Shown here in pieces: positions 5,428 to 29,341 of a DNA stretch of 29,731 bases. The translations under genes and the position numbers were made by a program. The first letter of the stretch is position 1. Every line of letters begins with the position of its first letter. A model generated the notes under the pieces. It ran no database searches. It was given only the letters and a program-made list of their open reading frames with translations, and was not told where the DNA came from. Origin of the DNA: an uncultured Candidatus Saccharibacteria bacterium (GTDB lineage: Bacteria; Patescibacteriota; Minisyncoccia; Phycocordibacterales; WO2-35-19); contig CAYQIR010000002.1 in the NCBI GenBank assembly GCA_964417625.1, positions 11,227 to 40,957 on the forward strand, in the 5' to 3' direction.

Positions 5428-5485
5428 TTTCCAACCTCCTGCTTCTAATTATATCACATTCACTAAAAAATGCAATGGGTATTTT

Positions 5486-5525: not shown

Positions 5526-5546
5526 AGAATGTGTTAAAATCTAAGG

Positions 5547-6323: not shown

Positions 6324-6330
6324 ATAACCC

Positions 6331-8904: not shown

Positions 8905-8908
8905 TATG

Positions 8909-9077
8909 ATACGAAAATTATGCGAAAGCTACAAAAAGGTAACGAGAATTTTTTCTTCCTTCTCCTTCGCAACCCGTCCGACTGGGTCATCCACCTGTGC
9001 CGGTACGGACAGGTCCGGGCGGAGGAGAGGGGTTGGGGTGAGGTCGAGTTTTTGCAGCTTTTCGTATTATTTCGTAT
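8909..9077. repeat. Nested inverted-repeat element between mraY and ftsW
   Basis: Imperfect ~29-bp IR at 8909-8937/9049-9077; inner 12-bp stem at 8958-8969/9020-9031 with a REP-type GGGGTTGGGGTGAGG tail; innermost ACCTGT..ACAGGT hairpin. Confidence 0.55.
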
Positions 9078-9086
9078 GATTTTCGT

Positions 9087-10193: not shown

Positions 10194-10213
10194 CAGAATT
10201 TTAAATTTATCCT

Positions 10214-11347
10214 ATGAAGATTATCTTTACAGGCGGCGGTTCGGGCGGGCACTTTTATCCGATTATCGCAATAACCGAGTCCATAAAAAAAATCGCCAAG
10301 CAAAAAAAGCTGTTGACCCCAGAGATGTATTTTTTCGGACCAAGCCCTTACAATCAAGGATTGCTTTACGACCACAATATCCGATACCAAAAAGTTACGG
10401 CCGGCAAAATGCGCCGCTACTTTTCGGTTTTGAATTTTTTTGACGCATTCAAAACCGCTTGGGGCGTTCTGATGGCCCTGTTGGACGTGTTTGATATTTT
10501 CCCGGATGTAGTGTTCAGTAAAGGCGCTTACGGGAGCTTCCCGACCATTATGGCAGCGAAGCTTTTGCGCATCCCGGTCTTTATCCACGAGTCTGATTCG
10601 GTGCCGGGCCGGGTCAACAAATGGGCGGGCAAATTTGCGGCTCGCATTGCCGTTTCTTACAAAGAGGCAGGAAGCTATTTCAAAGCGGACAAAGTAGCCT
10701 ACACCGGCCAGCCGGTTTTGGAAGAAAAACTGGTTCCCATCACCAACGGGGCGCCGGAGTTTTTTGGCTTTGACCAGAGCCTGCCGACCTTGTTCATTCT
10801 AGGCGGCTCCCAGGGGGCGGAAGTGATAAATAACGCGGTCCTAGATGTCTTGCCGGACTTAGTCAAAGATTTCCAGATTATTCACCAGGCCGGCGGAGAA
10901 AATATTGAAGTCATGAAAGAATCAGCCGCAGCGATATTATTGGAAAATCCATACAAGGAAAGATACAGGCCGTTTGGCTATTTGAACAGCCTGGAAATGC
11001 GGATGGCCGCCGGACTTTGCAGTTTGGTCGTCAGCCGGGCCGGTTCAACTATTTTTGAAATATCGTCATGGGGCAAGCCATCCATCATCATCCCAATCAG
11101 TGACTCTAACGAAAACCACCAGGTCAAAAATGCTTTTGCTTACGCCAAAACAGGCGCTTGCAGCGTGCTGCAGGAAGAAAATCTGAAATCGCACATTTTT
11201 TTGGCCGAAATCAAGCGCATCATAAATAATAAAGAAATTAACGATAAAATGTCGGAAAGCGCTAAAAACTTTTTCAAGCCTGGCGCCGCCGACCAAATAG
11301 CGGAAGCGCTGCTTTCTATCGCTCTCTCGCACGAGAAGTTGGAGTAA
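10214..11347 (+). CDS. murG: Undecaprenyl-PP-MurNAc-pentapeptide GlcNAc transferase
   Basis: TGGGSGGHFYP, HESDSVPGRVN, GGSQGA, SRAGST and HQVKNA. Confidence 0.95.
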   Translation: MKIIFTGGGSGGHFYPIIAITESIKKIAKQKKLLTPEMYFFGPSPYNQGLLYDHNIRYQKVTAGKMRRYFSVLNFFDAFKTAWGVLMALLDVFDIFPDVVFSKGAYGSFPTIMAAKLLRIPVFIHESDSVPGRVNKWAGKFAARIAVSYKEAGSYFKADKVAYTGQPVLEEKLVPITNGAPEFFGFDQSLPTLFILGGSQGAEVINNAVLDVLPDLVKDFQIIHQAGGENIEVMKESAAAILLENPYKERYRPFGYLNSLEMRMAAGLCSLVVSRAGSTIFEISSWGKPSIIIPISDSNENHQVKNAFAYAKTGACSVLQEENLKSHIFLAEIKRIINNKEINDKMSESAKNFFKPGAADQIAEALLSIALSHEKLE

Positions 11348-11360
11348 CTCTCGCTTAAAA

Positions 11361-11396
11361 CCTAACCCCCTAAATCCCCCTTAACTTAAGGGGGAA
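11361..11396 (-). repeat. REP-like palindrome upstream of the DUF559 gene
   Basis: TCCCCCTTAA-c-TTAAGGGGGA (11375-11395) plus an AACCCCC tail in reverse orientation. Confidence 0.75.
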
Positions 11397-11450
11397 TTTA
11401 TGGAAAGCTTCGCTTGCTCTTAAATTCAAAAAAACGGTTATAATATTCGC

Positions 11451-11834
11451 ATGTATAAATTCAGTTTCAACAACACATCACTCAAAAATCGCAGAAGGAA
11501 GCTGCGAGCCAATCAAACCAATGCTGAGAAAAAATTGTGGGAATTTCTGCGAGGCAGAAGATTTCGTGGACTAAAATTTTATCGCCAGTTTAGTGTTGGA
11601 GCGTACATATTGGATTTTTACTGTTCAAAATTAAGGCTCGCCATTGAACTAGATGGAGGCCATCACAAAGAAAATGAAACGGTGCTGTACGATAAAGATA
11701 GAGAAAAAATTCTAAAGGCCTCGAATGTTCGCGTAATCAGATTTTGGAATGATGAAGTCGAAAATAACACAGAGAATGTGCTGGGAAAATTAGATGAAGA
11801 GATAAATAAGGAAGGTTTGGTTCCCCTCTCTTAA
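11451..11834 (+). CDS. DUF559 / Vsr-like PD-(D/E)XK endonuclease
   Basis: RRKLRANQTNAEKKLW, KFYRQ, ILDFYC, LAIELDGGHH, D..R...L...VIRFWN; TATAAT 6 nt upstream (leaderless). Confidence 0.9.
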   Translation: MYKFSFNNTSLKNRRRKLRANQTNAEKKLWEFLRGRRFRGLKFYRQFSVGAYILDFYCSKLRLAIELDGGHHKENETVLYDKDREKILKASNVRVIRFWNDEVENNTENVLGKLDEEINKEGLVPLS

Positions 11835-11862
11835 TTTAAGAGAGGGGATAGGGGTGAGTTAG
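11822..11862 (+). repeat. REP-like palindrome containing the DUF559 stop codon
   Basis: 13-bp IR TCCCCTCTCTTAA-t-TTAAGAGAGGGGA followed by TAGGGGTGAGTTAG. Confidence 0.8.
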
Positions 11863-11889
11863 AAAAAGGGTGCGGAGCATTCCACAAGT

Positions 11890-11924
11890 TCCCTCTTAAC
11901 TTAAGAGGGATTTAGAGAGTTAGG
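11890..11924 (+). repeat. REP-like palindrome, second copy downstream of DUF559
   Basis: 10-bp IR TCCCTCTTAA-c-TTAAGAGGGA followed by TTTAGAGAGTTAGG. Confidence 0.75.
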
Positions 11925-11949
11925 AGGGGAGGGCAGGGGGAGGTTTTCT

Positions 11950-11958
11950 TGCTATAAT
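11950..11958 (+). promoter_or_regulatory. Extended -10 promoter for a leaderless gltX transcript
   Basis: TGcTATAAT lies 6 nt upstream of the ATG at 11965. Confidence 0.6.
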
Positions 11959-11964
11959 GGCTCT

Positions 11965-13344
11965 ATGGAAAACAGCCAAAAAGTCGTGGTCAGATTCCCG
12001 CCGAGCCCAACCGGTTTTTTGCAAATGGGGAATGTCAGAACTCTGATTTATAATTATTTGTTCGCCAGACAAAATGGCGGCCAGTTTTTGCTCCGCATAG
12101 AAGACACTGACAAAGAAAGGTCAAAAAAAGAGTATGAGGATGCCATATTTGATGATATAAAATGGCTTGGGATTGATTATGACAACAAGCAAGAGGTTTG
12201 GAGATCATCACAAAGGACAGAGATATATAAGCAAAAATTGCATGAGTTAATTAATAAGGGGCATGCTTATATCTCTCAAGAAACTGAAGGAAAGAACAAA
12301 GAAGTTATAAGATTTAAAAATCCCGGCGGTAAAGTAAAATTTCAAGATTTGATAAGAGGAGAAATTGAAATAGACGTCTCTGACCTTGGTGATTTTATTA
12401 TTGCTAGAAACATAAACGATCCCTTGTATCACGTAGCCGTTTCTATTGATGACGCCGAAGCGGGTATGACTCACGTCATCCGAGGAGATGACCATATATC
12501 AAACACCCCCCGTCAGATTTTAATCATCGAGGCGCTAGGCGGTCAAAGGCCTATCTACGCCCACTTACCGATGGTTTTGGCTCCCGATAAAAGTAAACTA
12601 TCAAAAAGAAAACATGGGGAGGCCGTTTCTCTTAGGTATTATAAGGATAGAGGGTACGTACCCGAGGCTATAGTCAATTTCCTCGCAATGGTGGGTTGGA
12701 ACCCCGGAACTGACCAAGAGATTTTCAGTCTGGAAGAACTGATTAAAACTTTTGATTTGAGCAAAGTCCAAAAAAAAGGAGCGATTTTCAATGTAGAAAA
12801 ATTGGATTGGATGAACCGGGAATATATACTTCGTCTTTCAGACGAAGATAAATTTTCAATTTTTAATTTACAATTTTCAAAGACGAAATGGAAGGAACAC
12901 GAAAAAGGCAAGAATAGAGAATTCTTGGAAAAATTATCAAAGATTCTGCTAGACCGAATTCACCGCTCCGGAGAGGTGAGTGAAGCTATAAACTCGGGAG
13001 AATTTGATTATCTTTTTGAAAAACCGGTTTTGGAAAAAGAAAAAATCATGTGGAAAGGGCAAGATCCAGAAGAGGCAAAAATCTTATTACATGAATTAAC
13101 TAAAATTTTAGAAGGTGACACCGATCTAAATAAGATAAAAATTAAAATAATGGATTTAGCAGAAGGGAAGGCCCGCCCACCATCGCTACGCTCAGGCGTG
13201 AGCGGGCGGGGGAGCGTCCTCTGGCCTCTGCGTTACGCATTATCAGGGAGAGAAAGGTCACCTGATCCATTTACGTTAATTGATATTCTGGGAATCAAGG
13301 AGAGTAAAGAGAGAATTATGAAAGCTATGGAAATATTAACATAA
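11965..13344 (+). CDS. gltX: Glutamate-tRNA ligase
   Basis: RFPPSPTG, LRIEDTD, HVIRGDDH, KLSKR and LWPLRYALSG. Confidence 0.95.
   Translation: MENSQKVVVRFPPSPTGFLQMGNVRTLIYNYLFARQNGGQFLLRIEDTDKERSKKEYEDAIFDDIKWLGIDYDNKQEVWRSSQRTEIYKQKLHELINKGHAYISQETEGKNKEVIRFKNPGGKVKFQDLIRGEIEIDVSDLGDFIIARNINDPLYHVAVSIDDAEAGMTHVIRGDDHISNTPRQILIIEALGGQRPIYAHLPMVLAPDKSKLSKRKHGEAVSLRYYKDRGYVPEAIVNFLAMVGWNPGTDQEIFSLEELIKTFDLSKVQKKGAIFNVEKLDWMNREYILRLSDEDKFSIFNLQFSKTKWKEHEKGKNREFLEKLSKILLDRIHRSGEVSEAINSGEFDYLFEKPVLEKEKIMWKGQDPEEAKILLHELTKILEGDTDLNKIKIKIMDLAEGKARPPSLRSGVSGRGSVLWPLRYALSGRERSPDPFTLIDILGIKESKERIMKAMEILT
13171..13210. repeat. Palindromic in-frame insertion (33 nt, ARPPSLRSGVS) inside gltX
   Basis: GC-rich hairpin (GCCCGC/GCGGGC; CCCGCCC/GGGCGGG) inside AT-rich CDS, interrupting the K-GRG-x-VLWP motif. 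Confidence 0.6.
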
Positions 13345-15331: not shown

Positions 15332-15901
15332 TTATTTTACAGCTAATTCTTTGTATTCAGAATAGGCGGACGTTCTTCCCCAGCACCCGACAGAGGACTG
15401 CCAGGGTCTGACTCCATACTTCTCAAACAAGTGCCTCCCATAAGCGGTGTTCCCTTCTATGGTCAGGATATCGTATCCGAGCTTATCGGAATCGGTGCTG
15501 TGATAGTATTCGTTGATTTGCATTACTCCCCGGTCCAAGCTATTTTGCTCGCCCCGGAGCACTTCGCCGTTCTCGCCATACTGGCGGAAGCGGGATTCGC
15601 ATCTGGCAATTTCAACCATTACTGGTATGTCAGAAAAATAATTTCTGACATATTTCTCCACTTCCACACCCTTCCCTATTTCCACTCTCATTCTTGATTC
15701 TTTCGCCTCTACGGCTATAACCAGCGGTTTTTCCGGTGCGATAAAGGGATTGAATGATGCTCCGCCAAACCCCGTGATACTGGAAGCGATCATCATAAAC
15801 CCCAAAGCGGCAGTTTCGAAAATAAGCCTATTGTTTAATTTTAATCCAATCCATTTTGTGCGTGGCAGGGATTCCCTACCCTCCCGTCTGAATGAATTCA
15901 A
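15332..15901 (-). CDS. Lysozyme-fold / soluble lytic transglycosylase-like secreted protein (true start probably downstream)
   Basis: IARCES catalytic Glu motif, GVMQIN, GN..YG..L...G..PW..S..CW; signal-like FMMIASSITGFG. Confidence 0.75.
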   Translation of the reverse strand: MNSFRREGRESLPRTKWIGLKLNNRLIFETAALGFMMIASSITGFGGASFNPFIAPEKPLVIAVEAKESRMRVEIGKGVEVEKYVRNYFSDIPVMVEIARCESRFRQYGENGEVLRGEQNSLDRGVMQINEYYHSTDSDKLGYDILTIEGNTAYGRHLFEKYGVRPWQSSVGCWGRTSAYSEYKELAVK

Positions 15902-16066
15902 TACGGGTAAACTTCAAAAGTTAACAAAATGTTTGGGAGCTCTTTATGAAAGAAATCGCAAACTCGAACCATGTTGTTGTTGCCTGCGCTTTAACACAAG
16001 GGCTCTATCCCACTCCGCCAAAGGCTTCGCGGGAATAAATAAATCCAGTACTACTGGATTGCAATA

Positions 16067-16095
16067 AGCATAGCATATTTTGCTCTTGCTGTCAA
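16067..16095 (-). promoter_or_regulatory. Sigma70-type promoter for the SLT-like gene
   Basis: Minus strand TTGACA, 17 nt, TATGCT with TG extension; predicted start coincides with the 9-bp hairpin at 16042-16060. Confidence 0.6.
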
Positions 16096-16144
16096 TACAA
16101 AAGTGTGGTCTAATTTAGACGCCAAAAAGCTCGTAATTCGTGTC

Positions 16145-18877
16145 TTAAAATTCTTTGTAGTTTGGATCTACCGCAAAGTTGGCTAACACGGTTTCGTTGC
16201 CAACACCCTTGGTAAATGTGCAGGTTGGTTGCCTTTGATTGCCTTCAGTAGTGCAAGTAACTCCGCTCCAGCCGGTGAATATTCTATTGGAAGCGTGCGA
16301 CTCGATAAGCTGAACGGAAGTGCCGGGTATGTAATTTTCACTGCAATCAGTGCCGCAATTGATTCCCACCGGAAGGCTTGTTACCAGCCCCTGCCCTGTC
16401 CTTATAACATTCAAAGCAGAAGCAGGAGCATCCTGAATATTAATAGTCACCGTATCAAACGAATTTGGCCCAACCGGATCGCAGGCAATGGTATAGCTGG
16501 TGGATTGATATAAAGGACCGACGGTAGCGCTTCCTGAGCCATTCGGATAAGCAGCAGGGTTTGGTTTTGGCTGCGAAGTAATAGTGCAACTATCGACAGT
16601 AGCGCTTGAATATTGCCAGCTTAAAACAGAAGTATCGGTACCATATATAACACTGGTAGGATTGGCATCAATATTTACCACAGCGGGAGGCGTTGGCGTA
16701 ACCGTTGCGGAAACCGTAGGAGAATTTCCTCCGGCATTCGTGCAATATAATGTGTAAGTCGTTGCGGCGCTGATGCCGGATATCGTCTGATTTCCTCCAG
16801 CTACCGCTTTTGAACCGCTCCAGCCTCCCCCAGCAGTGCAGGAAGTAACATTTGAGCCGGAAACCGTCCAGGTCAGAGTTGAGGTTAGAGGCGAAGTGCC
16901 GGTGGTTGGATTGGCGACAAGAGTAACGGTTGGAGCCGGAGGGTTTACCACCACCGTCGCTCTTGCCGTGGCATCAGAAGTGCCGGCTTTTGAGCAAGTG
17001 ATGTCAAATATTTGGGTACTTGCCGGAATGCCGGTTCTGTCTTCAAATCCGCCTGATGGAGTCTTTGATCCGCTCCAATAGTTTGAGGCGGTGCAGGAAG
17101 TCGGGCTGCCTGTCGTGGTCCAGGTCAGCCTGGTAGTTCCCGGAGCAGTGAGCGGACCGGCTGGAGAGGCAGAAAGGGTAACGGAGATCGCGCCGACCGG
17201 CGTCACCGTTGCGGAAACCGTAGGAGAATTTCCTCCGGCATTCGTGCAATATAATGTGTAAGTCGTTGCGGCGCTGATGCCGGATATCGTCTGATTTCCT
17301 CCAGCTACCGCTTTTGAACCGCTCCAGCCTCCCCCAGCAGTGCAGGAAGTAACATTTGAGCCGGAAACCGTCCAGGTCAGAGTTGAGGTTAGAGGCGAAG
17401 TGCCGGTGGTTGGATTGGCGACAAGAGTAACGGTTGGAGCCGGAGGGTTTACCACCACCGTCGCTCTTGCCGTGGCATCAGAAGTGCCGGCTTTTGAGCA
17501 AGTGATGTCAAATATTTGGGTACTTGCCGGAATGCCGGTTCTGTCTTCAAATCCGCCTGATGGAGTCTTTGATCCGCTCCAATAGTTTGAGGCGGTGCAG
17601 GAAGTCGGGCTGCCTGTCGTGGTCCAGGTCAGCCTGGTAGTTCCCGGAGCAGTGAGCGGACCGGCTGGAGAGGCAGAGAGGGTGACGGAGATTGGACACG
17701 CAGATGAGACTGTACCAATAACTGAGCCGCTTGGAGCCGAAGAACCGGCCAGACTGGTTGCTACTACAGTGTATGAATGTGGCGTGCCAGGGGTAAGGCT
17801 AGTGTCCTGAAAAGATAAACCTGATGCATTATACACAGGCGTGCCTCCCCCATCTCTATATACTTGATAACTCGTCGCTCCGCCGGAAGCGTTCCAAGAT
17901 ATATTAAGCAAATTACTGTCGCATGACCCGGCCGAAACGCTGAGGCCGGTAGGAGTAGGAGGCGGCGGTGCTATGGTAGCACTACAAGAACTAACTCCCC
18001 ACCCATAGTCGGTATAACAGGTCCAGGACCAACCGGTACCGGTGGAAGTCAGTGAGCCTTGGGAATTGCCTATATTAAAATGAGCGGTATCGGAAACAGG
18101 CGCTCCGGTATCGCACAAGAATCGGGGGTCATATACTCCGCCACTCTGCGTATCAGGAGCTGCATAATCTTTGTTAACTGCATCACTGTGATACGGAAAA
18201 GCTTTACCATTAAAAGAACCGCAAGTGCCGTAAAAATACGCCATACATTGAGCATTGGTGCCTCCATTTATGCCCGCACATTGCCAATACCAAGGTCCAC
18301 CGCCGACAAAAGTTGACGGATAAGCTAGGCCGCTATCGCAAGCAGGAGTAGATAAAGATGAATATGAACCCAAATGATTATAGCCACAAGCTCCATTAAC
18401 CACCGTCGTATCAACAGTACAGTCATACGAACAAATTTCAGGATTTTCCGTATTTGGGTCACAGTACCCATCTCCACAAGAAGTGCCGTCTCCAGGCTGG
18501 CCGCAACATGCTGTCTGGCCATCACAAGGATCGTTAACATCATCACATACTCCGCCCGGAGGATAGATTGGTATGCAATCGCATCCTGTAGTTGAAGAAC
18601 AATTGAAAATACCGCTTCCTGATGAGTACGGGCAGAATTGGCCTGATGACGCGCAAACGGCTGATCCAGTATCACCACAGTCAATAGAACAACTTCCGTC
18701 GTTACTGTAATTGCATGTGTCGGTTCCGCAAGCTGCATCCCATGTATTACATGTCCCTGAATCAGCCACTACCACCCCTGCTGGTAAAAAATAGAGAACC
18801 AAAAACATTACAGCTAGTAGAAGCAATAAAGTTAATATTCTGGATTTTGGTAAAAATAAGTTAGTAACTATTGACAT
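16145..18877 (-). CDS. 910-aa Cys-rich surface/adhesin-like protein (FN3, Ig-like repeats, InlB-B-repeat-like C-terminus)
   Basis: N-terminal TM/signal; 18 Cys in ~115 aa including CGDGYC; NGACG repeat; FN3-like ISWN..ATSYQVYR; duplicated Ig-like pairs; GQGLVTS.P.GINCG.DC..F.GWSG. Confidence 0.85.
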   Translation of the reverse strand: MSIVTNLFLPKSRILTLLLLLAVMFLVLYFLPAGVVVADSGTCNTWDAACGTDTCNYSNDGSCSIDCGDTGSAVCASSGQFCPYSSGSGIFNCSSTTGCDCIPIYPPGGVCDDVNDPCDGQTACCGQPGDGTSCGDGYCDPNTENPEICSYDCTVDTTVVNGACGYNHLGSYSSLSTPACDSGLAYPSTFVGGGPWYWQCAGINGGTNAQCMAYFYGTCGSFNGKAFPYHSDAVNKDYAAPDTQSGGVYDPRFLCDTGAPVSDTAHFNIGNSQGSLTSTGTGWSWTCYTDYGWGVSSCSATIAPPPPTPTGLSVSAGSCDSNLLNISWNASGGATSYQVYRDGGGTPVYNASGLSFQDTSLTPGTPHSYTVVATSLAGSSAPSGSVIGTVSSACPISVTLSASPAGPLTAPGTTRLTWTTTGSPTSCTASNYWSGSKTPSGGFEDRTGIPASTQIFDITCSKAGTSDATARATVVVNPPAPTVTLVANPTTGTSPLTSTLTWTVSGSNVTSCTAGGGWSGSKAVAGGNQTISGISAATTYTLYCTNAGGNSPTVSATVTPVGAISVTLSASPAGPLTAPGTTRLTWTTTGSPTSCTASNYWSGSKTPSGGFEDRTGIPASTQIFDITCSKAGTSDATARATVVVNPPAPTVTLVANPTTGTSPLTSTLTWTVSGSNVTSCTAGGGWSGSKAVAGGNQTISGISAATTYTLYCTNAGGNSPTVSATVTPTPPAVVNIDANPTSVIYGTDTSVLSWQYSSATVDSCTITSQPKPNPAAYPNGSGSATVGPLYQSTSYTIACDPVGPNSFDTVTINIQDAPASALNVIRTGQGLVTSLPVGINCGTDCSENYIPGTSVQLIESHASNRIFTGWSGVTCTTEGNQRQPTCTFTKGVGNETVLANFAVDPNYKEF
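16695..17692. repeat. 504-bp in-frame tandem duplication
   Basis: 16701-17173 reads identical to 17205-17677 by eye; a few synonymous differences occur only at the unit edges. Confidence 0.95.
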
Positions 18878-18886
18878 ATTATTTTT

Positions 18887-19471
18887 TTATTGTAAGGTTT
18901 TAACTACAAGTTCAACGTTATTTTCTTTTTGAGTAAACATAATTCTGACTTGCGTTTTAGATTGAGAATTTACATATTCCATAAAGCCAAACTTATCAGA
19001 ATACAAGCCTGTTTGGAATAACCACTGAGTATTATTAAAATCTCTAATTTTTTCTAGAATATTACCCTGAATAGTTGAATTGCTGATTGTGTAATTAAAG
19101 AAATAGCCGATTTGTTTCTGTTCTTCATATTCTAATTTTTTGGTGAAAACTTGCGCATCAAAATCAGTAAAAACAAAATCCCGCAACTCTTCGGGCAGAT
19201 CTGCTGACTTTATGGGCGTAGTTTTAACGACGTTAGGAAAAATAATAGCAGCTTGACTTAAAAATGTTCTTTGTTTGTCTCTGAGTTCCTGTTCCGCTGT
19301 TTTGGTATTCGTTGGATTTAGATTAAATTTATCTTGCCAAAAAATCAAATAAAAAGAAATGAGGACGGCAGCAACAATTATTGTCGCTCCTTTAAACCAT
19401 GTGGTCTTAAAAAACGGTTTTGAAGGTGAAGGAATAGTTAAGTTTTGGTTATATATTTCTCCCATTGACAC
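18887..19471 (-). CDS. Single-TM hypothetical protein, AT-rich, probable operon partner of the surface protein (start may be the ATG at 19465)
   Basis: One TM helix; 9-nt gap to the 910-aa gene; TGaTATAAT at 19475-19483; spot count 18/60 GC at 18961-19020. Confidence 0.75.
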   Translation of the reverse strand: MSMGEIYNQNLTIPSPSKPFFKTTWFKGATIIVAAVLISFYLIFWQDKFNLNPTNTKTAEQELRDKQRTFLSQAAIIFPNVVKTTPIKSADLPEELRDFVFTDFDAQVFTKKLEYEEQKQIGYFFNYTISNSTIQGNILEKIRDFNNTQWLFQTGLYSDKFGFMEYVNSQSKTQVRIMFTQKENNVELVVKTLQ

Positions 19472-19639
19472 TCAATTATATCAAAAAATAGTATAATTTT
19501 AGGTAAATGATATGTGGATAAGTGCATTAACACACAGATTGTCCACTCTTTAAAGATACCCGTTTATAACACGTGTTGTATAATTCTAATTAGATGTTTG
19601 ATGTTCGTTGACTTCAACCTGGTATAAAGGAGGTGTCAA

Positions 19640-21769
19640 ATGCGCCATATTTTTTGGGTCGTATTCTTCGTGAACGCGGCCTTGGGACAACAACAATACA
19701 CAATTACAGAGATGCCGGCGATTTCGCCGACTGTCTCAATTGTGACTCGTCTTGCGGTTGGCCCGGACAACAAAGTCTGGGCAGTGTACCAAGATCAAGG
19801 CCGGGGGTTTATCGCCGTCAAAGAAGCAGGTCAGCAGGGGTTTAGTGTGGTTGGTGGTAATGTCAACCCATCTTTCTTTTCCCCTAAAATGTCATGGTCT
19901 GGGCGTTCCGACGGGCCATGGATGACTATGGGATCATTCTTCCCCCAACCTGGAGCACGTAGCCTGCTGGGAGAATTCACGGGCGAAAGAGTCAATGGAG
20001 TTTCTACTTACAAGAATGTTACTTTAGAAGCAACTCTACTTCCCAGCCTAAACGCTCTCTGTCCAAACTACAGCGTTAAAAATGCTGGCAGTAACAATCC
20101 TGCTCCTGTCACTTATATTGGTCCGTTCCCGTCAAACGGGGCTTACCACATGCTGTTGACCGGCACAGATAAACTCACGTCGATTTATCGACTCAACCCT
20201 TCAGGTTGCAGTCTAGACCTCGTCGTCAAGACTTCGATCTGGGCTTTGCAGGCATGGCCAATTGGAAACAATTTGTTCCTTACGGAACGGATCGTGAATC
20301 CAAATTTCATTAGTCAAGTATCTGAGATCGGCACTATTGACTCTGGTGGGAAATTTACCAGCCTGGTCAAGTCTGACAGGAGTGATCGGTGCGACATGGT
20401 GTTTGACCATGCCCAACAGCAGGCTCTTATATCCTGCAAAGACGCTAGAGGCGGTCGCGTCGTCCTGTTCAGGAATGGAGCTATTCGGGAAATTTACTCC
20501 GGTGGCGAAGTGTCGCAGAACGTTCGAGCAATCGCCATAAACGGCGACTATGCCGTGTTCGGTGGCAGCACTACCAATGTACCGATTGCTACGTTGCTAC
20601 TCGCCAATCTCCAAACCGGCACGGTTGCTGTGTTGGTAAAAGCCGGAGACAAGAGGCACCCTGTTGTGGAAGCTCTGGTTGGATTTGTTGCAGATACAAT
20701 AAGTGTTTCCACGGACGGTATAGTGTATTTTGGCGGCGCAGCAGCCGGCTGGGCGAAAACTTTTGTTGTAGCCCCTCATGCCTCAGTCCTTCAGCCACAG
20801 CTTGACCCTATTAGCGGAGTTCTCATTGGCCGGACTGCAACACTCTCCGGCAAGAATCTCGTGCAGCCGCAGACGGTTACGACCGTCCTGCTAAACGGAA
20901 CGAGTATCCCGTTCAATACGCTTGGAGACCGGCTGGACATCACTGCCCCCTCGGTCCCCGGCACCTATGCGGTCCAAGTGAAAGTAGTTGGTGCAGTAGA
21001 GCAACTTTCCAACATCATCCAGCTCACAGTATCAGCGCCTGTGCCGGTCAACCCCGTATTCTCCGCTGCCGCTGTGGTGGACAATGCCTCGGGACAGAAC
21101 CCCTGTTCTCCAGGCGGAATTTGCTCCGTTTATGGTACTCGGCTGGCCATTGCTACCGCCGTAGCTTCAATAATTCCGTTGCCAACCGTGCTTGCCGGTA
21201 CGCAAGTACTGGTAAACAACGTTCCGGCCCCGCTTTTCTTTGTTTCCCCAGGCCAAATCAATTTCCAGATGCCTTGGGAAACAGCTGTAGGCCAGGCAAC
21301 TATGATGGTGATTTCCGGTTCGCTTTCAAGCGACTCGGTTGCCATTACAGTTATAGAGTCAGGGCCAGGGCTTTATCGAGCAAATGGCCTCGCCATTGCT
21401 CAAGATGGCCTGACCGGCATACTGACAAATACCGCCGACTCTCCGGCCTACGGAGGACAGGTGCTGGTGCTATACGGCACAGGGTTTGGGTTGACCGAAT
21501 GCAAAGTTGCAACTGGTTCCATCACTCCCGCAAAGCTTTGCACCGTCCTCCAAAAAGTCTCCGTGAATTTCGCTGGCGCGCAAGCGCAGGTTCTCTGGGC
21601 AGGCCTTTCTCCCGGTTGGATTGGCCTCTACCAGATCAACTTAGTGGTTCCGGACACGCTCCCCATTCCTGGGGACACGCCCGAACTGGTAGAAATTTCT
21701 CTGGAAGTCGGCAACCGCAAGGACGCCACTTCCAAAGGGATTCTGCTTGGTCAAAGGAGGCTTCCATAA
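19640..21769 (+). CDS. Secreted protein with an IPT/TIG-like domain and a Solibacter-type C-terminal domain (TIGR03437-like)
   Basis: Signal peptide; C-terminus LPTVLAGTQVLVNNVPAPLFFVSPGQINFQMP ... VLYGTGFG ... AGLSPGWIGLYQINLVVP; AAGGAGGT Shine-Dalgarno. Confidence 0.85.
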   Translation: MRHIFWVVFFVNAALGQQQYTITEMPAISPTVSIVTRLAVGPDNKVWAVYQDQGRGFIAVKEAGQQGFSVVGGNVNPSFFSPKMSWSGRSDGPWMTMGSFFPQPGARSLLGEFTGERVNGVSTYKNVTLEATLLPSLNALCPNYSVKNAGSNNPAPVTYIGPFPSNGAYHMLLTGTDKLTSIYRLNPSGCSLDLVVKTSIWALQAWPIGNNLFLTERIVNPNFISQVSEIGTIDSGGKFTSLVKSDRSDRCDMVFDHAQQQALISCKDARGGRVVLFRNGAIREIYSGGEVSQNVRAIAINGDYAVFGGSTTNVPIATLLLANLQTGTVAVLVKAGDKRHPVVEALVGFVADTISVSTDGIVYFGGAAAGWAKTFVVAPHASVLQPQLDPISGVLIGRTATLSGKNLVQPQTVTTVLLNGTSIPFNTLGDRLDITAPSVPGTYAVQVKVVGAVEQLSNIIQLTVSAPVPVNPVFSAAAVVDNASGQNPCSPGGICSVYGTRLAIATAVASIIPLPTVLAGTQVLVNNVPAPLFFVSPGQINFQMPWETAVGQATMMVISGSLSSDSVAITVIESGPGLYRANGLAIAQDGLTGILTNTADSPAYGGQVLVLYGTGFGLTECKVATGSITPAKLCTVLQKVSVNFAGAQAQVLWAGLSPGWIGLYQINLVVPDTLPIPGDTPELVEISLEVGNRKDATSKGILLGQRRLP

Positions 21770-21811
21770 CCTCTTTTGTGTACAAAACAATCCCGCTGTT
21801 TGCGGGACCGC

Positions 21812-21860
21812 CCGGCCGGGACGATGCGTAGATTCGCAAAGTCCCGGCCGGTTTTAGTTT
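21812..21860 (+). terminator. Intrinsic terminator
   Basis: 11-bp IR CCGGCCGGGAC/GTCCCGGCCGG followed by TTTTAGTTTT. Confidence 0.7.
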
Positions 21861-21875
21861 TCCACTTTTTTGTGC

Positions 21876-21903
21876 TTGACAATATATATAATTTTGATAT
21901 AAT
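21876..21903 (+). promoter_or_regulatory. Near-consensus sigma70 promoter for the S8 protease gene
   Basis: TTGACA, 16 nt, TATAAT with TG extension; GAGGAG RBS before the ATG at 21951. Confidence 0.7.
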
Positions 21904-21950
21904 AGAACTAGAATTATTGAGGTTATTTGTAAATTTGAGAGGAGACGGAT

Positions 21951-23015
21951 ATGAAAACGGCATTCGCGTTAATCACGCTGGTCGTTTTCGCACGACCGGC
22001 TCAATCACAAACACGGGAACTGAACGATCCGCTTTACGCGCGCCAGGAGAGAAGCTTCGTGCAAGCCGGCGTACCATCCCTTTGGGCCGCCGTCGGCAAG
22101 ACAGTCGAAATTCCGGTCATTGATTTGGACACCGGGGTTGACTGCAACCATGAAGATATCTGGCGCGCGACTGACGCTTCGCAAGCCAAGTCGTTCGCGG
22201 ACAGGAAGCCATGCCAAGATGAATACGGGCACGGCACACGGACTTCGGCCGTTATCGCCGGACAGTCTGGCAACGAGATTGGCATCGCAGGAATCGCTGG
22301 CAACGTCCGGCTCATTCCTTACAAGATTGCCGCTCTCCTGCCGGACGGCACGCTGACCATGGGCGACGACTCGGTCGAAACTCTGGTCAAGGCGTTTGAC
22401 GCCATTGCTGAACTGCCCTACCCGCTCGTGATTGTTAACGCGAGCACGGCAGTCGGCTGCAACTCGCTTGAATGCTTTGGTTCGGATAAAGTCCGGGCAG
22501 CAATCGAGAGATTGCAAAACAAAGCGCTCATCGTAGCAGCCGCCGGCAACAACGGCTTCGGCCGTCAGCAAGGCGGGCAGGATGTGGATGCGTTTGAGCA
22601 TCTGCCCTGCACGGCGAGCAACTTGCCTAATGTGATTTGTGTCGGCGCTGTTGATTTTGAAGGACGGCTCATGTCGTCTTCCAACTTTGGCAGCAAGGTG
22701 CAGATCGCCGCTCCGGGCAACTGGGTTTGGACTGCAGTGCCTGGCAATCAGTACGCTCCGACTTCCGGCACTTCCATCGCGACGCCTTTCGTTTCAGGTA
22801 TCGCCGCGCTAGTAGCCGGGTCAATGCTCGCTGACGGCGCATCAGTCGAAAGAGTGACGCCTGCAACGCTCAAGCAGGCTCTCCTCGCCGGTGCCAAGTC
22901 CGAGCCTCAATCGGAGAATACCTTGGCCACCGCTCCTAACAACCCCGCCGTCGTGGACGGCCTGGGAACGCTAACAGCATTGCAAAAGCTGCTAGCAGAA
23001 CCGCCACAAAACTGA
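21951..23015 (+). CDS. Secreted subtilisin-family (S8) serine protease
   Basis: Catalytic triad in DLDTG, HGT and GTSIATP, oxyanion AAAGN, signal peptide. Confidence 0.93.
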   Translation: MKTAFALITLVVFARPAQSQTRELNDPLYARQERSFVQAGVPSLWAAVGKTVEIPVIDLDTGVDCNHEDIWRATDASQAKSFADRKPCQDEYGHGTRTSAVIAGQSGNEIGIAGIAGNVRLIPYKIAALLPDGTLTMGDDSVETLVKAFDAIAELPYPLVIVNASTAVGCNSLECFGSDKVRAAIERLQNKALIVAAAGNNGFGRQQGGQDVDAFEHLPCTASNLPNVICVGAVDFEGRLMSSSNFGSKVQIAAPGNWVWTAVPGNQYAPTSGTSIATPFVSGIAALVAGSMLADGASVERVTPATLKQALLAGAKSEPQSENTLATAPNNPAVVDGLGTLTALQKLLAEPPQN

Positions 23016-23046
23016 AGCGCCCCGATGTATATCGGGGCGCTTTTCT
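23015..23046. terminator. Intrinsic terminator (probably bidirectional)
   Basis: 12-bp IR AAGCGCCCCGAT-gtat-ATCGGGGCGCTT between convergent genes. Confidence 0.8.
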
Positions 23047-23065
23047 CATTTCAGCTCATCATTCC

Positions 23066-23560
23066 CTATTTCAACCCTTTGCAATTTGAAGCAGGAGTGT
23101 AGCCGGCGGCGCGAGCTTCTTCAATGGAATTAAAAGTGATTTTATTTTTTTCGGAAATTTGTTTGGCGCCAGCGCACCAAGGGTAATGATATTTGGTGCC
23201 ATTTTTTGAACCAACAACCGCACTATTATTCAAACCAGATTGCTCGGAGCCCATGTCTATATTTGCCCCCTTCACTTCTCCTATATTGTTCTTTTCGGTC
23301 TCCCCCTTAATGTAAGGGGGATTAAGGGGGTTATTAGTATCAGGATTTTGCGAAACAATCCGCACCGGCTCCCTCTCCCCGGCTATTTTAGAAATCCGGC
23401 CCAAACAAAAAGCAATAATAGCAACCAAAATGATAACTGCTGGCACGAAATACCGACCAGTCAAAAAGGCCTCCATTTTGGCCCGAAGACCCCCGCCTTT
23501 TGAAGAATCCAAATCTTCTAGGTCCACATATTCCTCTATATTATGTTGATCTTCTTGCAT
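23066..23560 (-). CDS. Membrane-anchored protein with an Ada-type metal-binding domain
   Basis: TM helix followed by GSKNGTKYHYPWC...F.S.EEA.AAGY.PA.NC. Confidence 0.8.
   Translation of the reverse strand: MQEDQHNIEEYVDLEDLDSSKGGGLRAKMEAFLTGRYFVPAVIILVAIIAFCLGRISKIAGEREPVRIVSQNPDTNNPLNPPYIKGETEKNNIGEVKGANIDMGSEQSGLNNSAVVGSKNGTKYHYPWCAGAKQISEKNKITFNSIEEARAAGYTPASNCKGLK
23301..23333 (+). repeat. REP-like palindrome inside the Ada-like CDS
   Basis: TCCCCCTTA-atg-TAAGGGGGA plus TTAAGGGGGTTA; closely matches the reverse complement of 11364-11395 and encodes NPLNPPYIKGE. Confidence 0.75.
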
Positions 23561-23627
23561 TTTATCCGGCTTTGTCTTATACTTTAGGTGTTAAGGATAT
23601 TATAACAAATAAGTCACATTAACTGAT

Positions 23628-23900
23628 ATGGCGCATAAAAAAGCGGCTGGAACAACAAAAAACGGCAGAGATTCGGGCCCGCAATATCTGGGGATTAAAA
23701 TTTCTGATGGCAGCTTGGCAAAGACCGGCGCTATTTTAGTGCGCCAAAGAGGTTCGCAAATCATCGCAGGCAATGGGGTTGGGGTCGGTAAAGATTACAC
23801 TCTTTTTGCTCTCCGAGACGGCAAAGTTAAAATGACCGCCAAAAGAAAAGTTCACTTCGACGGCTCCACTATCGTCAAAAAAGTCGCCAGCTTAGTGTAA
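23628..23900 (+). CDS. rpmA: 50S ribosomal protein L27
   Basis: [27 protein letters not shown] and [11 protein letters not shown]. Confidence 0.97.
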
Positions 23901-24008
23901 AAAATAAAATAGTTCTTGAGCGAGCTTCCGCAGGCTGACTGAGCCGAGGACAAGGAAATTTTCAGCAGAAAATTTCTGGAGCGAGCGAGAGAAGCTATTT
24001 TATTTTTT
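23899..24008. repeat. 110-bp inverted-repeat element between convergent rpmA and rplI
   Basis: Perfect 14-bp terminal IR at 23899-23912/23995-24008 and inner hairpin GAAATTTTC-agca-GAAAATTTC. Confidence 0.6.
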
Positions 24009-24450
24009 ACACTGATTCTACTGACAAAATAAACTCGCCCTTGCTTTTGCCGACTTCGGCGAGGACAGCATGCTCCCCTACTTCCTTGATTGGCTTTTCG
24101 GTTTTCAAAAATTCCGCATCAATATTTATGTGAGCTTGACTCTTCAAAGCTTCGGCAATTTCTGCCGAGTGGATTTTTTCAAACAAGTGGCCTTTGTCGC
24201 TCGCTTTTTTAGTTAGAGTGATTTTTATTCCTTTTAATATCTCAATTTGCTTTTCAGCTAAACTTTCCCTGATTTCAATTTCAGCGATAGCGGTTTTTTT
24301 GAGCTCCTCCGCTTTTTTGACTGCATCCGCAGTGGCGAACTCGGCCATTTTTTGGGGCAACAAAAAATTGTTGGCATACCCGTCGGCCACATTTTTAACT
24401 TCGTACTTTCGGCCAATGCCTTTGATGTCCTGTTTTAATATAACCTTCAT
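24007..24450 (-). CDS. rplI: 50S ribosomal protein L9
   Basis: MKVILKQDIKGIGRKYEVKNVADGYANNFLLP, GHLFEKI and PIKEVGEH. Confidence 0.96.
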   Translation of the reverse strand: MKVILKQDIKGIGRKYEVKNVADGYANNFLLPQKMAEFATADAVKKAEELKKTAIAEIEIRESLAEKQIEILKGIKITLTKKASDKGHLFEKIHSAEIAEALKSQAHINIDAEFLKTEKPIKEVGEHAVLAEVGKSKGEFILSVESV

Positions 24451-25737: not shown

Positions 25738-25786
25738 TTTCTGTTATAATATATCACAGCTTGGCCTCATATCAAAAATTAAAATC

Positions 25787-26689
25787 ATGATTGTAACACG
25801 TTCCTTTATGGATCAAGTTTGGACCGATTTGAATTCCCCCACCAAAGAAGAACTGGACGGGCTTATTTTGGCCCAAAATTTGGACCCGCTCATCGCTAAG
25901 GACCTCTTGACGCCCACTCCCAGACAGCACGCTAAAGAATTCAGCAATGCTATTTACGCGGTCATCCATATCCCTATTTTCAAGCATGCCCATTCCCTCA
26001 ATTTGGAGCAGGAGGTGGATTTTATCATTACCGAAAAGGGCCTCCTCACCACTCGCTATGACAGCATTGACGCTTTGCACCACTTTGCCAAGCAGATAGA
26101 AGTGGATGAGATTTTGAACAAAGAAAATCATTCCCACCTTTTCTTCGGCCTGATGCGCGAAATCTATAAATTCCTTTTTGACGAAGTTGAATACACCAAA
26201 GACTGGCTCCGTGAGATTGAAAAAAATATTTTCCAGGGCCGGGAGAAGAATATGGTATTTGACATTTCCGAGGCCGGCATCAATCTTTTGAGCTTCAAAA
26301 GAGTGGTAGGGCCGCACGAAGCCGTCTGGAGAAACCTGAAGGAAATTGGCACCAGCCATTTTGGCGAGAAATTCGGTAAAGACGCCAAGGTACTCTTGGA
26401 AGAAGCAGAGCGGCTGACCCTCGAGTTGGGCAACATTTCCGATATGCTTGATGAACTGCGCGAGACCAACAATTCCATTCTCTCGACGAAGCAAAATGAG
26501 GTAATGAAGATTTTCACCATCTTGGCTTTTGTGACTTTCCCTTTGTCGCTCATAGCCGCCATCTTCGGCATGAACACCGCATTCATACCAATTGTCGGAA
26601 CACCGAACGATTTTTGGATAGTAGTAGGGTTTATGTTTATCGTAAGCCTTGCAATGTTCTCCTATTTCAAGTATAAAAAATGGATCTAA
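25787..26689 (+). CDS. corA: CorA-family Mg2+/Co2+ transporter
   Basis: NEVMKIFTI and FGMN signature followed by two C-terminal TM helices. Confidence 0.9.
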   Translation: MIVTRSFMDQVWTDLNSPTKEELDGLILAQNLDPLIAKDLLTPTPRQHAKEFSNAIYAVIHIPIFKHAHSLNLEQEVDFIITEKGLLTTRYDSIDALHHFAKQIEVDEILNKENHSHLFFGLMREIYKFLFDEVEYTKDWLREIEKNIFQGREKNMVFDISEAGINLLSFKRVVGPHEAVWRNLKEIGTSHFGEKFGKDAKVLLEEAERLTLELGNISDMLDELRETNNSILSTKQNEVMKIFTILAFVTFPLSLIAAIFGMNTAFIPIVGTPNDFWIVVGFMFIVSLAMFSYFKYKKWI

Positions 26690-26692
26690 CAT

Positions 26693-28078
26693 ATGGAAAT
26701 AAAATTGCATAACACCCTAAGCGGCAAGAAAGAAGTTTTTAAACCCATCAACGAAAAAGAAGCATTGATGTACAACTGCGGGCCGACCGCTTATGGCGAG
26801 CAGCATATTGGGAATCTTAGTATGTTCGTCTTTACCGATATCCTCCGCCGCACTCTGGAATATGGCGGCTACAAAGTAAAGCAAGTGATAAACATCACCG
26901 ACTTCGGCCACCTCTCCGGCGACAATGAAGGCCGGGCTGACGAAGGCGAGGACCGGATGACTAAGGGCCTCCGGCGCGAAAAAATGGCGCTTACCATGTC
27001 CAACATGCGGGTGCTCGCAGAGAAGTATGCCAATATATTTTTTGAGTCGCTTAAAACTCTCAACGTCAATATCGAAAAAACCCGCTTCCCTTTTGCTTCG
27101 GATTATATTCCGGACCAAATCAAAATGATTCAAACGCTCCAAGAAAAAGGCTTCACTTATAATGGAGAAAACGGCGTATATTTTGATACGAATAAATTTC
27201 CGGACTATGGGGGGCTAGGGCAAATCAATCTCGCCGGGCTCTCGGAGGGGGCGCGGGTAGAAAAAAGCGAGAAGAAAAGCCCGACCGACTTTATCCTCTG
27301 GAAAAAAGATAAAAAAATAGGCTGGGAATCGCCATGGGGCCTCGGCTTCCCGGGTTGGCACATTGAATGTTCGGCTATGATTTTCAAACTGCTTGGCGAA
27401 CAGATAGATATCCACACCGGCGGCATCGAACACATCCCCGTTCACCACAACAACGAAATTGCTCAGGCTGAATCGGCGAGCGGCAAAAAACCGTTTGTGA
27501 AGTTTTGGCTTCATCGGGCTCATCTGAAAATTGACGACAGCAAAATTTCCAAATCCGAAGGCACCGCCGTTTACCTCGGCGACTTCAAGCTCCGCCACAT
27601 CCACCCCCTCTCTTTCCGCTTCTGGCTCCTTACCGCCCACTACAAAACGGGAGCCAACTTCACTTGGGAAGGAGTCCGGGGCGCCCAAACCGCTTTTGAG
27701 AAAATTTTGAATGCTTACCTTGATATGCCAAAGTCAGACAAAAGCGACAAAGAAGTAATGGAAAAATTTGAAAAAGCGATCGTTGATGACCTGAATACTC
27801 CGGTCGCCATCGCCATCATGCAAGAAGCCAGGTCAAAAAAAGTTATAGAAAAAATGGACAAAGTGCTGGGCCTCAATATTGAAAAGCTGGCCAAGGAAAT
27901 AGAGACGAATATTCCCGATGAAATCGCAGAATTGAAGTCAGAAAGAGACAGCGCCAGGAGCGCCAAAAACTGCGAGCACAGCGACGCCTTGCGCAAAGAG
28001 ATTGAAAAAGACAATTTCATCTTGGAAAACAAAAATGGCAAAAGTGTCATTAGAAAAAAATTGTTTTCTTTGATTTAA
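26693..28078 (+). CDS. cysS: Cysteine-tRNA ligase
   Basis: YNCGPT, HIGN, GFPGWHIECS, DIHTGG, HHNNE and KISKS. Confidence 0.97.
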   Translation: MEIKLHNTLSGKKEVFKPINEKEALMYNCGPTAYGEQHIGNLSMFVFTDILRRTLEYGGYKVKQVINITDFGHLSGDNEGRADEGEDRMTKGLRREKMALTMSNMRVLAEKYANIFFESLKTLNVNIEKTRFPFASDYIPDQIKMIQTLQEKGFTYNGENGVYFDTNKFPDYGGLGQINLAGLSEGARVEKSEKKSPTDFILWKKDKKIGWESPWGLGFPGWHIECSAMIFKLLGEQIDIHTGGIEHIPVHHNNEIAQAESASGKKPFVKFWLHRAHLKIDDSKISKSEGTAVYLGDFKLRHIHPLSFRFWLLTAHYKTGANFTWEGVRGAQTAFEKILNAYLDMPKSDKSDKEVMEKFEKAIVDDLNTPVAIAIMQEARSKKVIEKMDKVLGLNIEKLAKEIETNIPDEIAELKSERDSARSAKNCEHSDALRKEIEKDNFILENKNGKSVIRKKLFSLI

Positions 28079-28094: not shown

Positions 28095-28123
28095 CTCTCC
28101 CCTAGTTGTGCGATCGCACAACT
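28095..28123. repeat. 29-bp direct repeat with a perfect 20-bp palindrome (3' end of the PaaX-like gene)
   Basis: CTCTCCCCT-AGTTGTGCGATCGCACAACT; contains the gene's stop codon. Confidence 0.9.
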
Positions 28124-28719
28124 GTGGTAGGTTCCGTATAAGGAAAGTTGATTTTAAGCTTAAAATCTGGCTCTACCGAACGGGCTACGATATAACGCAC
28201 ATATTTTTTGATCTCATACAATTCGGCAATCTTAAACATTTGTTCTTTGCACTCGTGGGGATACACAAAAACAGATTTTTCAAAATTATACATCCCGGCA
28301 AAATTAAGAGCTCTGTTAAAACGCTGCCTGTTTATTTTTAGTTTCTCGGGTATATCAAAAGTTACAATTCTCCAAAAACCATCCCATTTAATTCCTAAAG
28401 GTAATTTGATTGATTTAACTTTAAGGCCGGCAAAATAAATTCTGCCTTCTTTTGTTAATTTCAATTTCCTTTTGCCATTTTTCATCCAAAAGCGTATAAA
28501 TTTTCTTTTTTCAAGTGAGTTGAGTATACGTTCTGTTCTGTACTTATTTTTCCAATCCGGAACCCATCCCAGCAGTTTGATAATATGTCCAGCCGCATTC
28601 GGCGCAGCAACTCCTAAAAATAAAATGGTTCCTAGTTTACCAATCGCCTCTAAAATTTCCAAAGTTCTTTCGTCTCTGGCAAATTTTTTAACTTTTTGAA
28701 TTTTTTCTTTTATCTCCAC
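28102..28719 (-). CDS. PaaX-like protein: winged-HTH plus Cas2/VapD-like domain
   Basis: L..LEKRKFI...KLKLTKEG (wing) followed by WDGFWRIVTFDIPE...R..F.R.L...G...EKSVFV.P; GTG start 8 nt after TATAAT. Confidence 0.8.
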   Translation of the reverse strand: MEIKEKIQKVKKFARDERTLEILEAIGKLGTILFLGVAAPNAAGHIIKLLGWVPDWKNKYRTERILNSLEKRKFIRFWMKNGKRKLKLTKEGRIYFAGLKVKSIKLPLGIKWDGFWRIVTFDIPEKLKINRQRFNRALNFAGMYNFEKSVFVYPHECKEQMFKIAELYEIKKYVRYIVARSVEPDFKLKINFPYTEPTTVVRSHN

Positions 28720-28820: not shown

Positions 28821-28894
28821 GCGAGATTAGTTTAGTGGCAAAATGGGTGCTTCCCAAGCATCAGACGCGAGTTCGATTCTCGCATCTCGCACCA
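28821..28894 (+). tRNA. tRNA-Gly (anticodon CCC)
   Basis: Cloverleaf: acceptor GCGAGAT/ATCTCGC, anticodon arm GGTGC-TTCCCAA-GCATC, T arm GCGAG-TTCGATT-CTCGC, encoded CCA. Confidence 0.95.
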
Positions 28895-29068: not shown

Positions 29069-29341
29069 ATGCACTACGTTGTCTACATTTTAGAAGATCA
29101 AATAGACAAAACTTGGTATATTGGTTTTACTCATGATTTAAAGCAAAGATTGAAAGACCATAAATCTGGACATAGCCCTTATACAAGCAAGAAAAAAGAT
29201 TTGAAACTTATTTATGCAGAAATGTATTTGAGTAAAGCGGATGCTTTGGGTAGAGAAAAATTTTTGAAAAGTGGGTCTGGGCATAGATTTATAAAGAAGC
29301 AGTTGGCAAATTATTTTGATCTAAGCAAATTAGACCGCTAG
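29069..29341 (+). CDS. Stand-alone GIY-YIG nuclease-family protein
   Basis: YVVYIL, WYIGFT.DL..RL..H, EMYLSK.DA..RE.FLKSG.G. Confidence 0.9.
   Translation: MHYVVYILEDQIDKTWYIGFTHDLKQRLKDHKSGHSPYTSKKKDLKLIYAEMYLSKADALGREKFLKSGSGHRFIKKQLANYFDLSKLDR

Follow-up and report, generated by a model that had tools for sequence, protein, structure and literature searches.

A secreted multidomain protein in an accessory islet

The subject of this work is a gene, hereafter the target, at 19640-21769 of a 29.7-kb stretch of the metagenomic contig CAYQIR010000002.1; this stretch, analysed over its whole length of 29,731 nucleotides, is called the window. The target encodes a secreted protein ending in the domain TIGR03437 (Soli_cterm), which an earlier interpretation made from the letters of the DNA (the sequence-only reading) had taken for an acidobacterial signature in a genome resembling those of the Candidate Phyla Radiation (CPR). 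It had proposed horizontal transfer from an acidobacterial host or neighbour, perhaps for mimicry of the host surface or for use of the host's export pathway, and hence a gene that could identify the host. We found the target in a four-gene accessory islet and its relatives in other CPR-type loci, and the coordinates of the features are presented in Table 1.

Table 1 Coordinates, within the window, of the target gene, its signals and the islet in which it lies
Feature	Position	Strand	Description
Target gene, open reading frame (ORF)	19640-21769	+	Intact, 709 aa
Shine-Dalgarno sequence AAGGAGGTG	19627-19635	+	4 bases ahead of the target ATG at 19640; read directly
TIGR03437 module, coding region	21053-21715	+	Residues 472-692
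Intrinsic-terminator-like hairpin and U-run	21812-21861	+	3' of the target gene
Four-gene accessory islet	16145-23015	.	Large protein, membrane protein, target, S8; 6.9 kb; edges in intergenic 15902-16144 and 23016-23065
Large Cys-rich repeat surface protein	16145-18877	-	910 aa; signal/transmembrane segment, Cys-rich head, fn3/Ig-like repeats, InlB-B-repeat-like C-terminus
Small membrane protein	18887-19465	-	192 aa; one N-terminal transmembrane helix, GC 0.32; divergent from the target
Promoter-like site of the S8 gene, TTGACA-16-TATAAT	21876-21903	+	12/12 consensus match, TG upstream of the -10
Secreted S8 subtilase	21951-23015	+	354 aa; signal peptide; D60/H94/S275 motifs
Bidirectional terminator hairpin	23014-23043	.	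13 bp with 8 GC pairs, where the S8 and 164-aa genes converge; right edge of the islet

The NCBIfam model TIGR03437 matched residues 479-681 of the target protein over model positions 1-207 of 225 (E = 5.3e-53, 180.1 bits), about six times the curated cut-off of 29.05 bits and far past chance; the model is of the type 'paralog_domain' and is named 'Solibacter uncharacterized C-terminal domain'. The motifs by which the tail had first been recognised, SPGQIN and GLYQIN, lie at residues 536-541 and 662-667, and S536, Q539, N541, G662, Q665 and N667 are invariant in an alignment of 14 full-length relatives. Ahead of the module (residues 472-692) lie a Sec-type signal peptide (1-16, ...AALG/QQQ), a propeller-like region (about 20-380) and an immunoglobulin (Ig)-like/IPT domain (about 385-466). 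Only a short tail of about 17-28 residues separates the module from the stop, so that the module forms the C-terminus of a secreted multidomain protein. The signal peptide is visible in the target sequence and kept in the family alignment, and the target protein has no membrane anchor. It has eight cysteines, of which C141 and C190, in the N-terminal region of about 380 residues, are invariant in the family alignment; the invariant N-terminal residues, mostly Cys, Gly and Pro, are structural. Pfam gave only a weak IPT/TIG match to the target, the propeller-like head matched nothing in Pfam or NCBIfam, and a profile search of PDB sequences matched the middle Ig-like domain alone.

When modelled by AlphaFold2 with the family alignment, the target protein gave an all-beta structure with a predicted local distance difference test (pLDDT) score of 79.8, and the module alone gave 92.9. 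In Foldseek searches of the PDB the closest structures to the whole model were ectodomains joining a propeller to IPT/Ig domains (plexin, MET, integrin alpha and a Micromonospora sialidase), with a further match to the oligogalacturonate lyase 3c5m (TMt 0.54). For the module alone the matches were SbsC, an S-layer protein, and plexin and MET in their tandem IPT/Ig domains, and TIGR03437 is predicted to be two tandem Ig-like domains, not a sorting signal. The Sema-IPT ectodomains of plexin and MET, integrin alpha and the propeller-plus-Ig bacterial sialidase share with the target a propeller head on an Ig/IPT chain, but at 7-14% identity, TM-scores of 0.2-0.3 and no sequence homology the resemblance is architectural only. 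The S-layer and surface-array proteins SbsC, SbsB and Sap, likewise secreted to the bacterial surface, share with the target a series of tandem Ig-like domains; unlike them, the target has no SLH or other anchoring domain in Pfam or NCBIfam.

The strong Shine-Dalgarno sequence and separate terminator claimed for the target are both present. The GC-rich hairpin at 21812-21851 is followed by UUUUAGUUUU and folds at -47 kcal/mol (z = -5.7); a simple terminator scanner passed over it because its loop is long. The GC content (GC) is 0.526 for the target and 0.581 for the S8 gene, whereas the part of the window outside 16145-23015 has 0.444, so that the block is indeed GC-richer. The raw excess of the target is located at codon positions 1 and 2 and results from amino-acid composition, the protein being rich in Gly, Ala and Pro and poor in Lys, Asn and Ile. 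At fourfold-degenerate third codon positions (4-fold GC3) the target stands at 0.526, against 0.60-0.74 for the window backbone. Total GC3 had suggested native codon usage in the window and foreign codon usage in two further loci described below (L005 and L098); by 4-fold GC3, much of that signal proved to be due to amino-acid composition.

The genome itself is supported as that of a CPR bacterium of the Paceibacteria/Parcubacteria type by its CysRS matches and by collinearity, in agreement with the sequence-only reading. The window genes are mostly housekeeping (TrpRS, Asx-RS, ScpA/B, MraY-like, FtsW, MurG, GluRS, two M23 peptidases, L27, L9, S41 protease, CorA and CysRS). The named top matches of CysRS, at 53-69% identity, were without exception Parcubacteria, Patescibacteria or Candidatus Paceibacterota, the last at 69% and 57%. 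Three long-contig relatives keep the gene order of the window across about 11 genes, on both sides of the islet, at 59-83% protein identity. They are L099, whose CysRS is 73% identical to that of the window, L102/L103 (GCA_036517695.1), which is named Paceibacterota and has the 11-gene collinearity, and L104 (GCA_048499675.1).

In the window the gene order runs from M23, a small ORF and a 189-aa gene (minus strand) through the 910-aa gene, the 192-aa gene, the target and the S8 gene to a 164-aa gene (minus strand), L27, L9, S41, CorA and CysRS. In the relatives the slot corresponding to window 15902-23065, between a 157-aa gene and the 159-aa/L27 genes, holds a MacA/YknX-like gene, an ABC ATPase and an FtsX permease (L099, 2191-6510; L102/L103, about 2930-6540; L104); that of L104 contains further inserted genes too, its MacA/YknX gene lying outside the fetched locus. 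Between the window and the relatives' loci no homologues of the islet genes or of the exporter block were found either way, and the 17-21-kb loci fetched around the same site of the three relatives contain no TIGR03437; profiling of the ORFs of the window, to which this count is confined, gave one copy. With an exporter in the slot of all three collinear relatives, the islet is therefore a derived replacement. As the sequence-only reading had held, the islet contains no mobility gene, and none was found, nor any tRNA target or flanking direct repeats, in or beside 15900-23200. The 4-fold GC3 values of the islet genes are 0.439 (large protein), 0.364 (membrane protein), 0.526 (target) and 0.644 (S8); three of the four thus deviate from the backbone toward lower, not higher, values, and S8 is like the backbone. 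Such values agree with a source of lower GC, for which another CPR genome is the likeliest candidate, or with a relocation.

Among the partners of the target, the 910-aa gene contains a perfect 504-nt tandem duplication (16701-17173 = 17205-17677, span 16701-17677) encoding two identical 168-aa units, which was passed over by Tandem Repeats Finder for its period limit and may be either very recent or a wrong short-read copy number. The 192-aa membrane protein matched nothing in Pfam or NCBIfam, and exact-sequence look-ups were empty. The S8 gene matched Pfam PF00082 Peptidase_S8 at 110.6 bits (gathering threshold 21.8; 1e-31), with DTG at residue 60, HGT at 94 and GTSIATP at 273, and its promoter-like site is an unusually perfect full sigma-70 consensus. 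An assignment to the type VII secretion mycosins (TIGR03921) was rejected at 112.6 bits against an equivalog cut-off of 278.75, leaving a generic S8 protease.

A diverged protein family, its neighbours and the rest of the window

The family to which the target belongs was exposed by an exhaustive HMMER search, while word-indexed searches with the full protein or the N-terminal family alignment gave almost nothing. The C-terminal module was matched by 18,699 representative clusters at E <= 1e-3. Full-length matches were far fewer: 13 representatives of about 700 aa align over residues of about 7-699 at 27-35% identity, and TIGR03437 is present in 13/13. A hidden Markov model (HMM) of the N-terminal region matches the family alone (16 members including P0019 and L005; 397 bits for the target). 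As judged from these alignments, the target is a member of a diverged family of at least 16 proteins, each with a signal peptide, propeller-like region, Ig-like domain and TIGR03437. A Cys pair inside the module (TGxG..C..C; C621/C634 in the target) occurs in 12 of the 16 members and in three N-terminally truncated fragments, counted by motif search, a column-based count being too low owing to alignment shifts.

At 2-6 kb, most contigs that carry a family gene show little of its surroundings. The most informative locus, L005, comes from the metagenome-assembled genome Candidatus Zambryskibacteria RIFCSPLOWO2_01_FULL_39_39 (MHWB01000009.1), and was the sole one among the 80 best loci of a GTDB scan, described in the next section, to match beyond the C-terminal module (residues 177-677). 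Its homologue (7452-9479) has 675 aa, 30% identity over 520 aa and TIGR03437 at 1.8e-35, and shares the three-part architecture of the target and its neighbours, which stand in the same order and orientation. The large Cys-rich protein of L005 is 46% identical to that of the window over the C-terminal 91 residues, the small membrane protein matches the 192-aa protein weakly (E = 0.005), and an S8 subtilase downstream of the family gene is 28% identical to the window S8 (E = 3e-23). L005 differs in that its homologue lacks the Cys pair, its S8 protein has 617 aa with an extra Ig-like C-terminus, and the module adjoins DnaK/DnaJ/GrpE, not L27/L9. At L091 the large protein, the membrane protein and the family protein are 35%, 56% and 50% identical, respectively, to those of L005, and at L098 a large protein (42% over 121 aa to that of the window) is followed by a 192-aa membrane protein, the gene downstream being DsbA-like. 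In the window as in L005, L091 and L098, a divergent small membrane gene, of the same type and position each time, and a large Cys-rich gene therefore stand upstream of the family gene; across L005, L091 and L098 the neighbours and the family protein retain only 26-50% identity. L084 and L085 have low-GC flanks. A family recurring with its neighbours at this distance cannot name a host, and the idea that the target might do so is not supported.

Several details of these loci were recorded alongside. The large proteins of the window (16145-18877) and of L005 (4369-6783) share an InlB-B-repeat-like C-terminal domain with an identical FAVDPNYKEF end, which is a possible C-terminal recognition or sorting motif. 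The C-terminal extension of the L005 S8 protein (9611-11464) partly matches the Soli_cterm module HMM (E = 1e-7), an Ig-like element thus common to that protease and the family protein and lacking in the 354-aa window S8. At L086 a remnant at 378-800, ahead of the family gene, is near-identical to that gene's own last 60 residues or so, and at L085 an IS200-like Y1 transposase gene (1-924, Pfam 2.5e-12) lies next to the family gene; together they hint at local rearrangement around family genes. A metagenome scan with a degenerate DNA pattern returned ten stretches, four of them genuine and three of those from the same organism as L005, and a literature search on TIGR03437, Soli_cterm, the runs SRR12113383/84 or 'sunset domain' found nothing relevant.

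Elsewhere in the window, 11451-13344 may be a second compositionally odd segment, consisting of a DUF559 (endonuclease-like) gene and GluRS at low GC (0.38-0.39), with a 4-fold GC3 of 0.458 for GluRS against the 0.60-0.74 of the backbone. The 164-aa protein next to the islet (23066-23560, minus strand) resembles the NCBIfam 'sunset domain' models and the Ada zinc-binding domain at scores below threshold; it is encoded beside L27 in 3/3 collinear relatives and is 59% identical to that of L099. Of two ORFs overlapping on opposite strands, that at 25787-26689 (plus strand) is CorA (Pfam 1e-49, 64% identical to L099), and the 312-aa ORF at 25772-26710 (minus strand) was rejected as spurious, antisense to CorA. 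After CysRS come a PaaX-like gene (28102-28719, minus strand), tRNA-Gly(CCC) at 28821-28894, the sole tRNA of the window, and a GIY-YIG nuclease gene (29069-29341); the PaaX-like and GIY-YIG genes are found after CysRS in L102/L103 and L104 also.

Comparison with Acidobacteria and competing explanations

That TIGR03437 is mostly an acidobacterial domain was borne out by the GTDB scan, which took in 600 stretches at one genome per species and was not a census; the query consisted of patterns in the C-terminal module of a 5-sequence alignment, a 14-sequence alignment being too divergent. Among the best 80 loci, which were those examined, 79 were Acidobacteriota (Bryobacterales, Solibacteraceae, Terriglobia). 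The TIGR03437 proteins of Solibacter usitatus, Bryobacterales and Terriglobia resemble the target in the C-terminal module of about 220 aa with SPxQIN and GLYQxN, and differ from it in the propeller-like N-terminus, the Cys pair, the far higher 4-fold GC3, the genomic context and, as far as the 29.7-kb window shows, a paralogue expansion in place of a single copy. Acidobacterial matches were confined to target residues of about 440-700, at 30-43% identity for the 79 loci and 33-45% for the best matches, and no ORF of the 79 acidobacterial loci matched the N-terminal 380 residues in a search with the family N-terminal HMM. The module Cys pair was found by motif search in 0/86 acidobacterial domains. 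For 89 acidobacterial Soli_cterm ORFs the 4-fold GC3 averaged 0.757 +/- 0.077 with a minimum of 0.557, so that the target lies below all of them. The target thus has neither high identity to acidobacterial proteins over most of its length nor an acidobacterial-like codon composition. Nothing points to a recent acidobacterial donor, and it is plausible that the phyla came to share the module long ago.

We consider it fairly probable that the target encodes a Sec-exported surface or extracellular protein of a CPR-resident family, carried in a portable islet, and that its sharing of TIGR03437 with Acidobacteria is ancient and uninformative about the host. An old CPR-resident clade was what the sequence-only reading had named as the finding that would speak against it, and the family essentially corresponds to one, although 'strictly vertical' suits the data less well than 'resident and moving as a module'.

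Several observations weigh against this explanation. A neighbour-joining tree of 255 module sequences, the domain phylogeny that the sequence-only reading had called for, did not recover the family as a clade and resolved no donor, and the module is nearly as close to acidobacterial copies (<=45% identity) as to family members (44-48%); neither the direction nor the age of the domain sharing emerges from them. L091, L098, L084 and L085 were called CPR-like from low-GC flanks and synteny, L005 being the only named family locus, and L086 and L087 have GC-rich flanks (0.55-0.60) and no assigned taxonomy, so the family may be present outside low-GC CPR as well. The gene module adjoins different genes in each genome, with the IS200-like transposase beside that of L085, so that inheritance need not have been vertical. 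The Foldseek TM-scores are low, the proposed function is drawn from architecture alone, and both the left islet junction (15.9-16.15 kb) and 19471-19530 are supported by gene order in other genomes only.

The main rival to an adhesion role, unlikely yet the strongest of the alternatives, is that the target is a secreted polymer-scavenging enzyme whose head would be a propeller-type glycosidase, lyase or sialidase-like domain. The Foldseek matches to the Micromonospora sialidase (propeller plus Ig plus carbohydrate-binding module) and to the lyase 3c5m agree with an enzyme, as does the co-encoded secreted protease; against it, no catalytic family was matched by sequence in Pfam, NCBIfam or PDB, and the invariant residues of the head are mostly structural. 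Somewhat less likely still is that a CPR ancestor captured the two-Ig module from Acidobacteria and kept it because these CPR bacteria live on acidobacterial hosts, which would tie the target functionally to the surface or secretion biology of the host without a recent transfer. The abundance of the domain, matched by 18,699 representative clusters, is strongly skewed to Acidobacteria in the GTDB scan, and the CPR family is small, with the module fused to an otherwise unrelated N-terminal domain. However, the neighbour-joining tree gives this direction no support, a generic tandem Ig fold needs no host-specific role, and the taxon sampling amounts to one pattern-based scan of 600 stretches. 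More speculative, and improbable as it stands, is the further proposal that the four-gene block is a portable host-attachment module of Paceibacteria whose Ig-like tail came from Acidobacteria long ago and still contacts acidobacterial surfaces; if this were true, CPR lineages living on Acidobacteria would be marked out by where the module occurs.

A recent acquisition of the target, or of the target and S8, from an acidobacterial host or neighbour, pointing to the host and perhaps to surface mimicry, is very improbable and in practice refuted. The predominance of Acidobacteriota among the best loci, the raised GC of the block and its absence from the collinear relatives are what speak for it. 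The matches are nevertheless limited to the last 230 residues or so, the N-terminal domain and the Cys pair are missing on the acidobacterial side, the 4-fold GC3 of the target falls below the acidobacterial range, and the whole gene is kept with its neighbours in CPR genomes at about 30% identity. For horizontal transfer as such the accessory islet is the one point in favour; an acidobacterial donor is not supported.

The sequence-only reading had also asked that chimerism be excluded across 19500-19640 and 23015-23066. The runs SRR12113384 and SRR12113383 yielded Logan contigs that match the window at 100% identity over 19530-21910 (L001), 21886-23625 (L003) and 21933-24086 (L002). In L002 and L003, which stem from two runs, S8 is linked with the 164-aa gene, L27 and L9, so that the right junction (23015-23066) is independently supported, while 19471-19530 has gene order in other genomes as its support. 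That a GC-rich block of another organism was mis-joined to a CPR backbone is the least credible explanation of all: the window is a metagenomic contig, the Logan contigs stop near the edges of the target (19530, 21910, 21933) and the left islet junction lacks such support, but S8 is contiguous with the backbone genes at 100% in two runs, genomes assembled independently repeat the gene order to the left and right of the target, and the GC of the divergent small membrane gene is low, as is typical of CPR.

Proposed role of the module and its meaning

Under the CPR-resident explanation, the target protein would be exported by Sec, probably disulfide-bonded, with C141/C190 and C621/C634 as the predicted pairs, and would stand outside the cell or at its surface. 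A propeller-like head of about 360 residues would be carried by a three-domain Ig-like stalk, made up of the IPT/TIG-like domain and the two domains of TIGR03437, and the architecture suggests that the head binds a ligand while the stalk holds it off the cell. It may work with the large Cys-rich repeat protein, with the small membrane protein, which may serve as anchor or assembly factor, and with the secreted subtilase. The family would be kept in CPR genomes beside the large Cys-rich and small membrane proteins, with the S8 subtilase in some of them. At the present site the islet would have replaced a MacAB-like ABC exporter, having most likely come from another CPR genome or been moved from elsewhere in the same genome. 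To judge from architecture, the protein most likely serves in binding or adhesion at the cell surface, and the subtilase would be secreted along with it as a partner.

The hosts of most CPR bacteria are unknown, and a reliable host-derived gene would be valuable; the target is not one, and an inference of the host from it would mislead. The 'Solibacter' domain TIGR03437 extends beyond Acidobacteria. The family and its surface-protein module in Paceibacteria-type genomes are undescribed and ordinary-looking; the module moves between sites and, in the window, has taken the place of an ABC exporter. Modules of this kind may reasonably be considered for the machinery by which these episymbionts attach, and binding studies would have a defined target in the propeller head.

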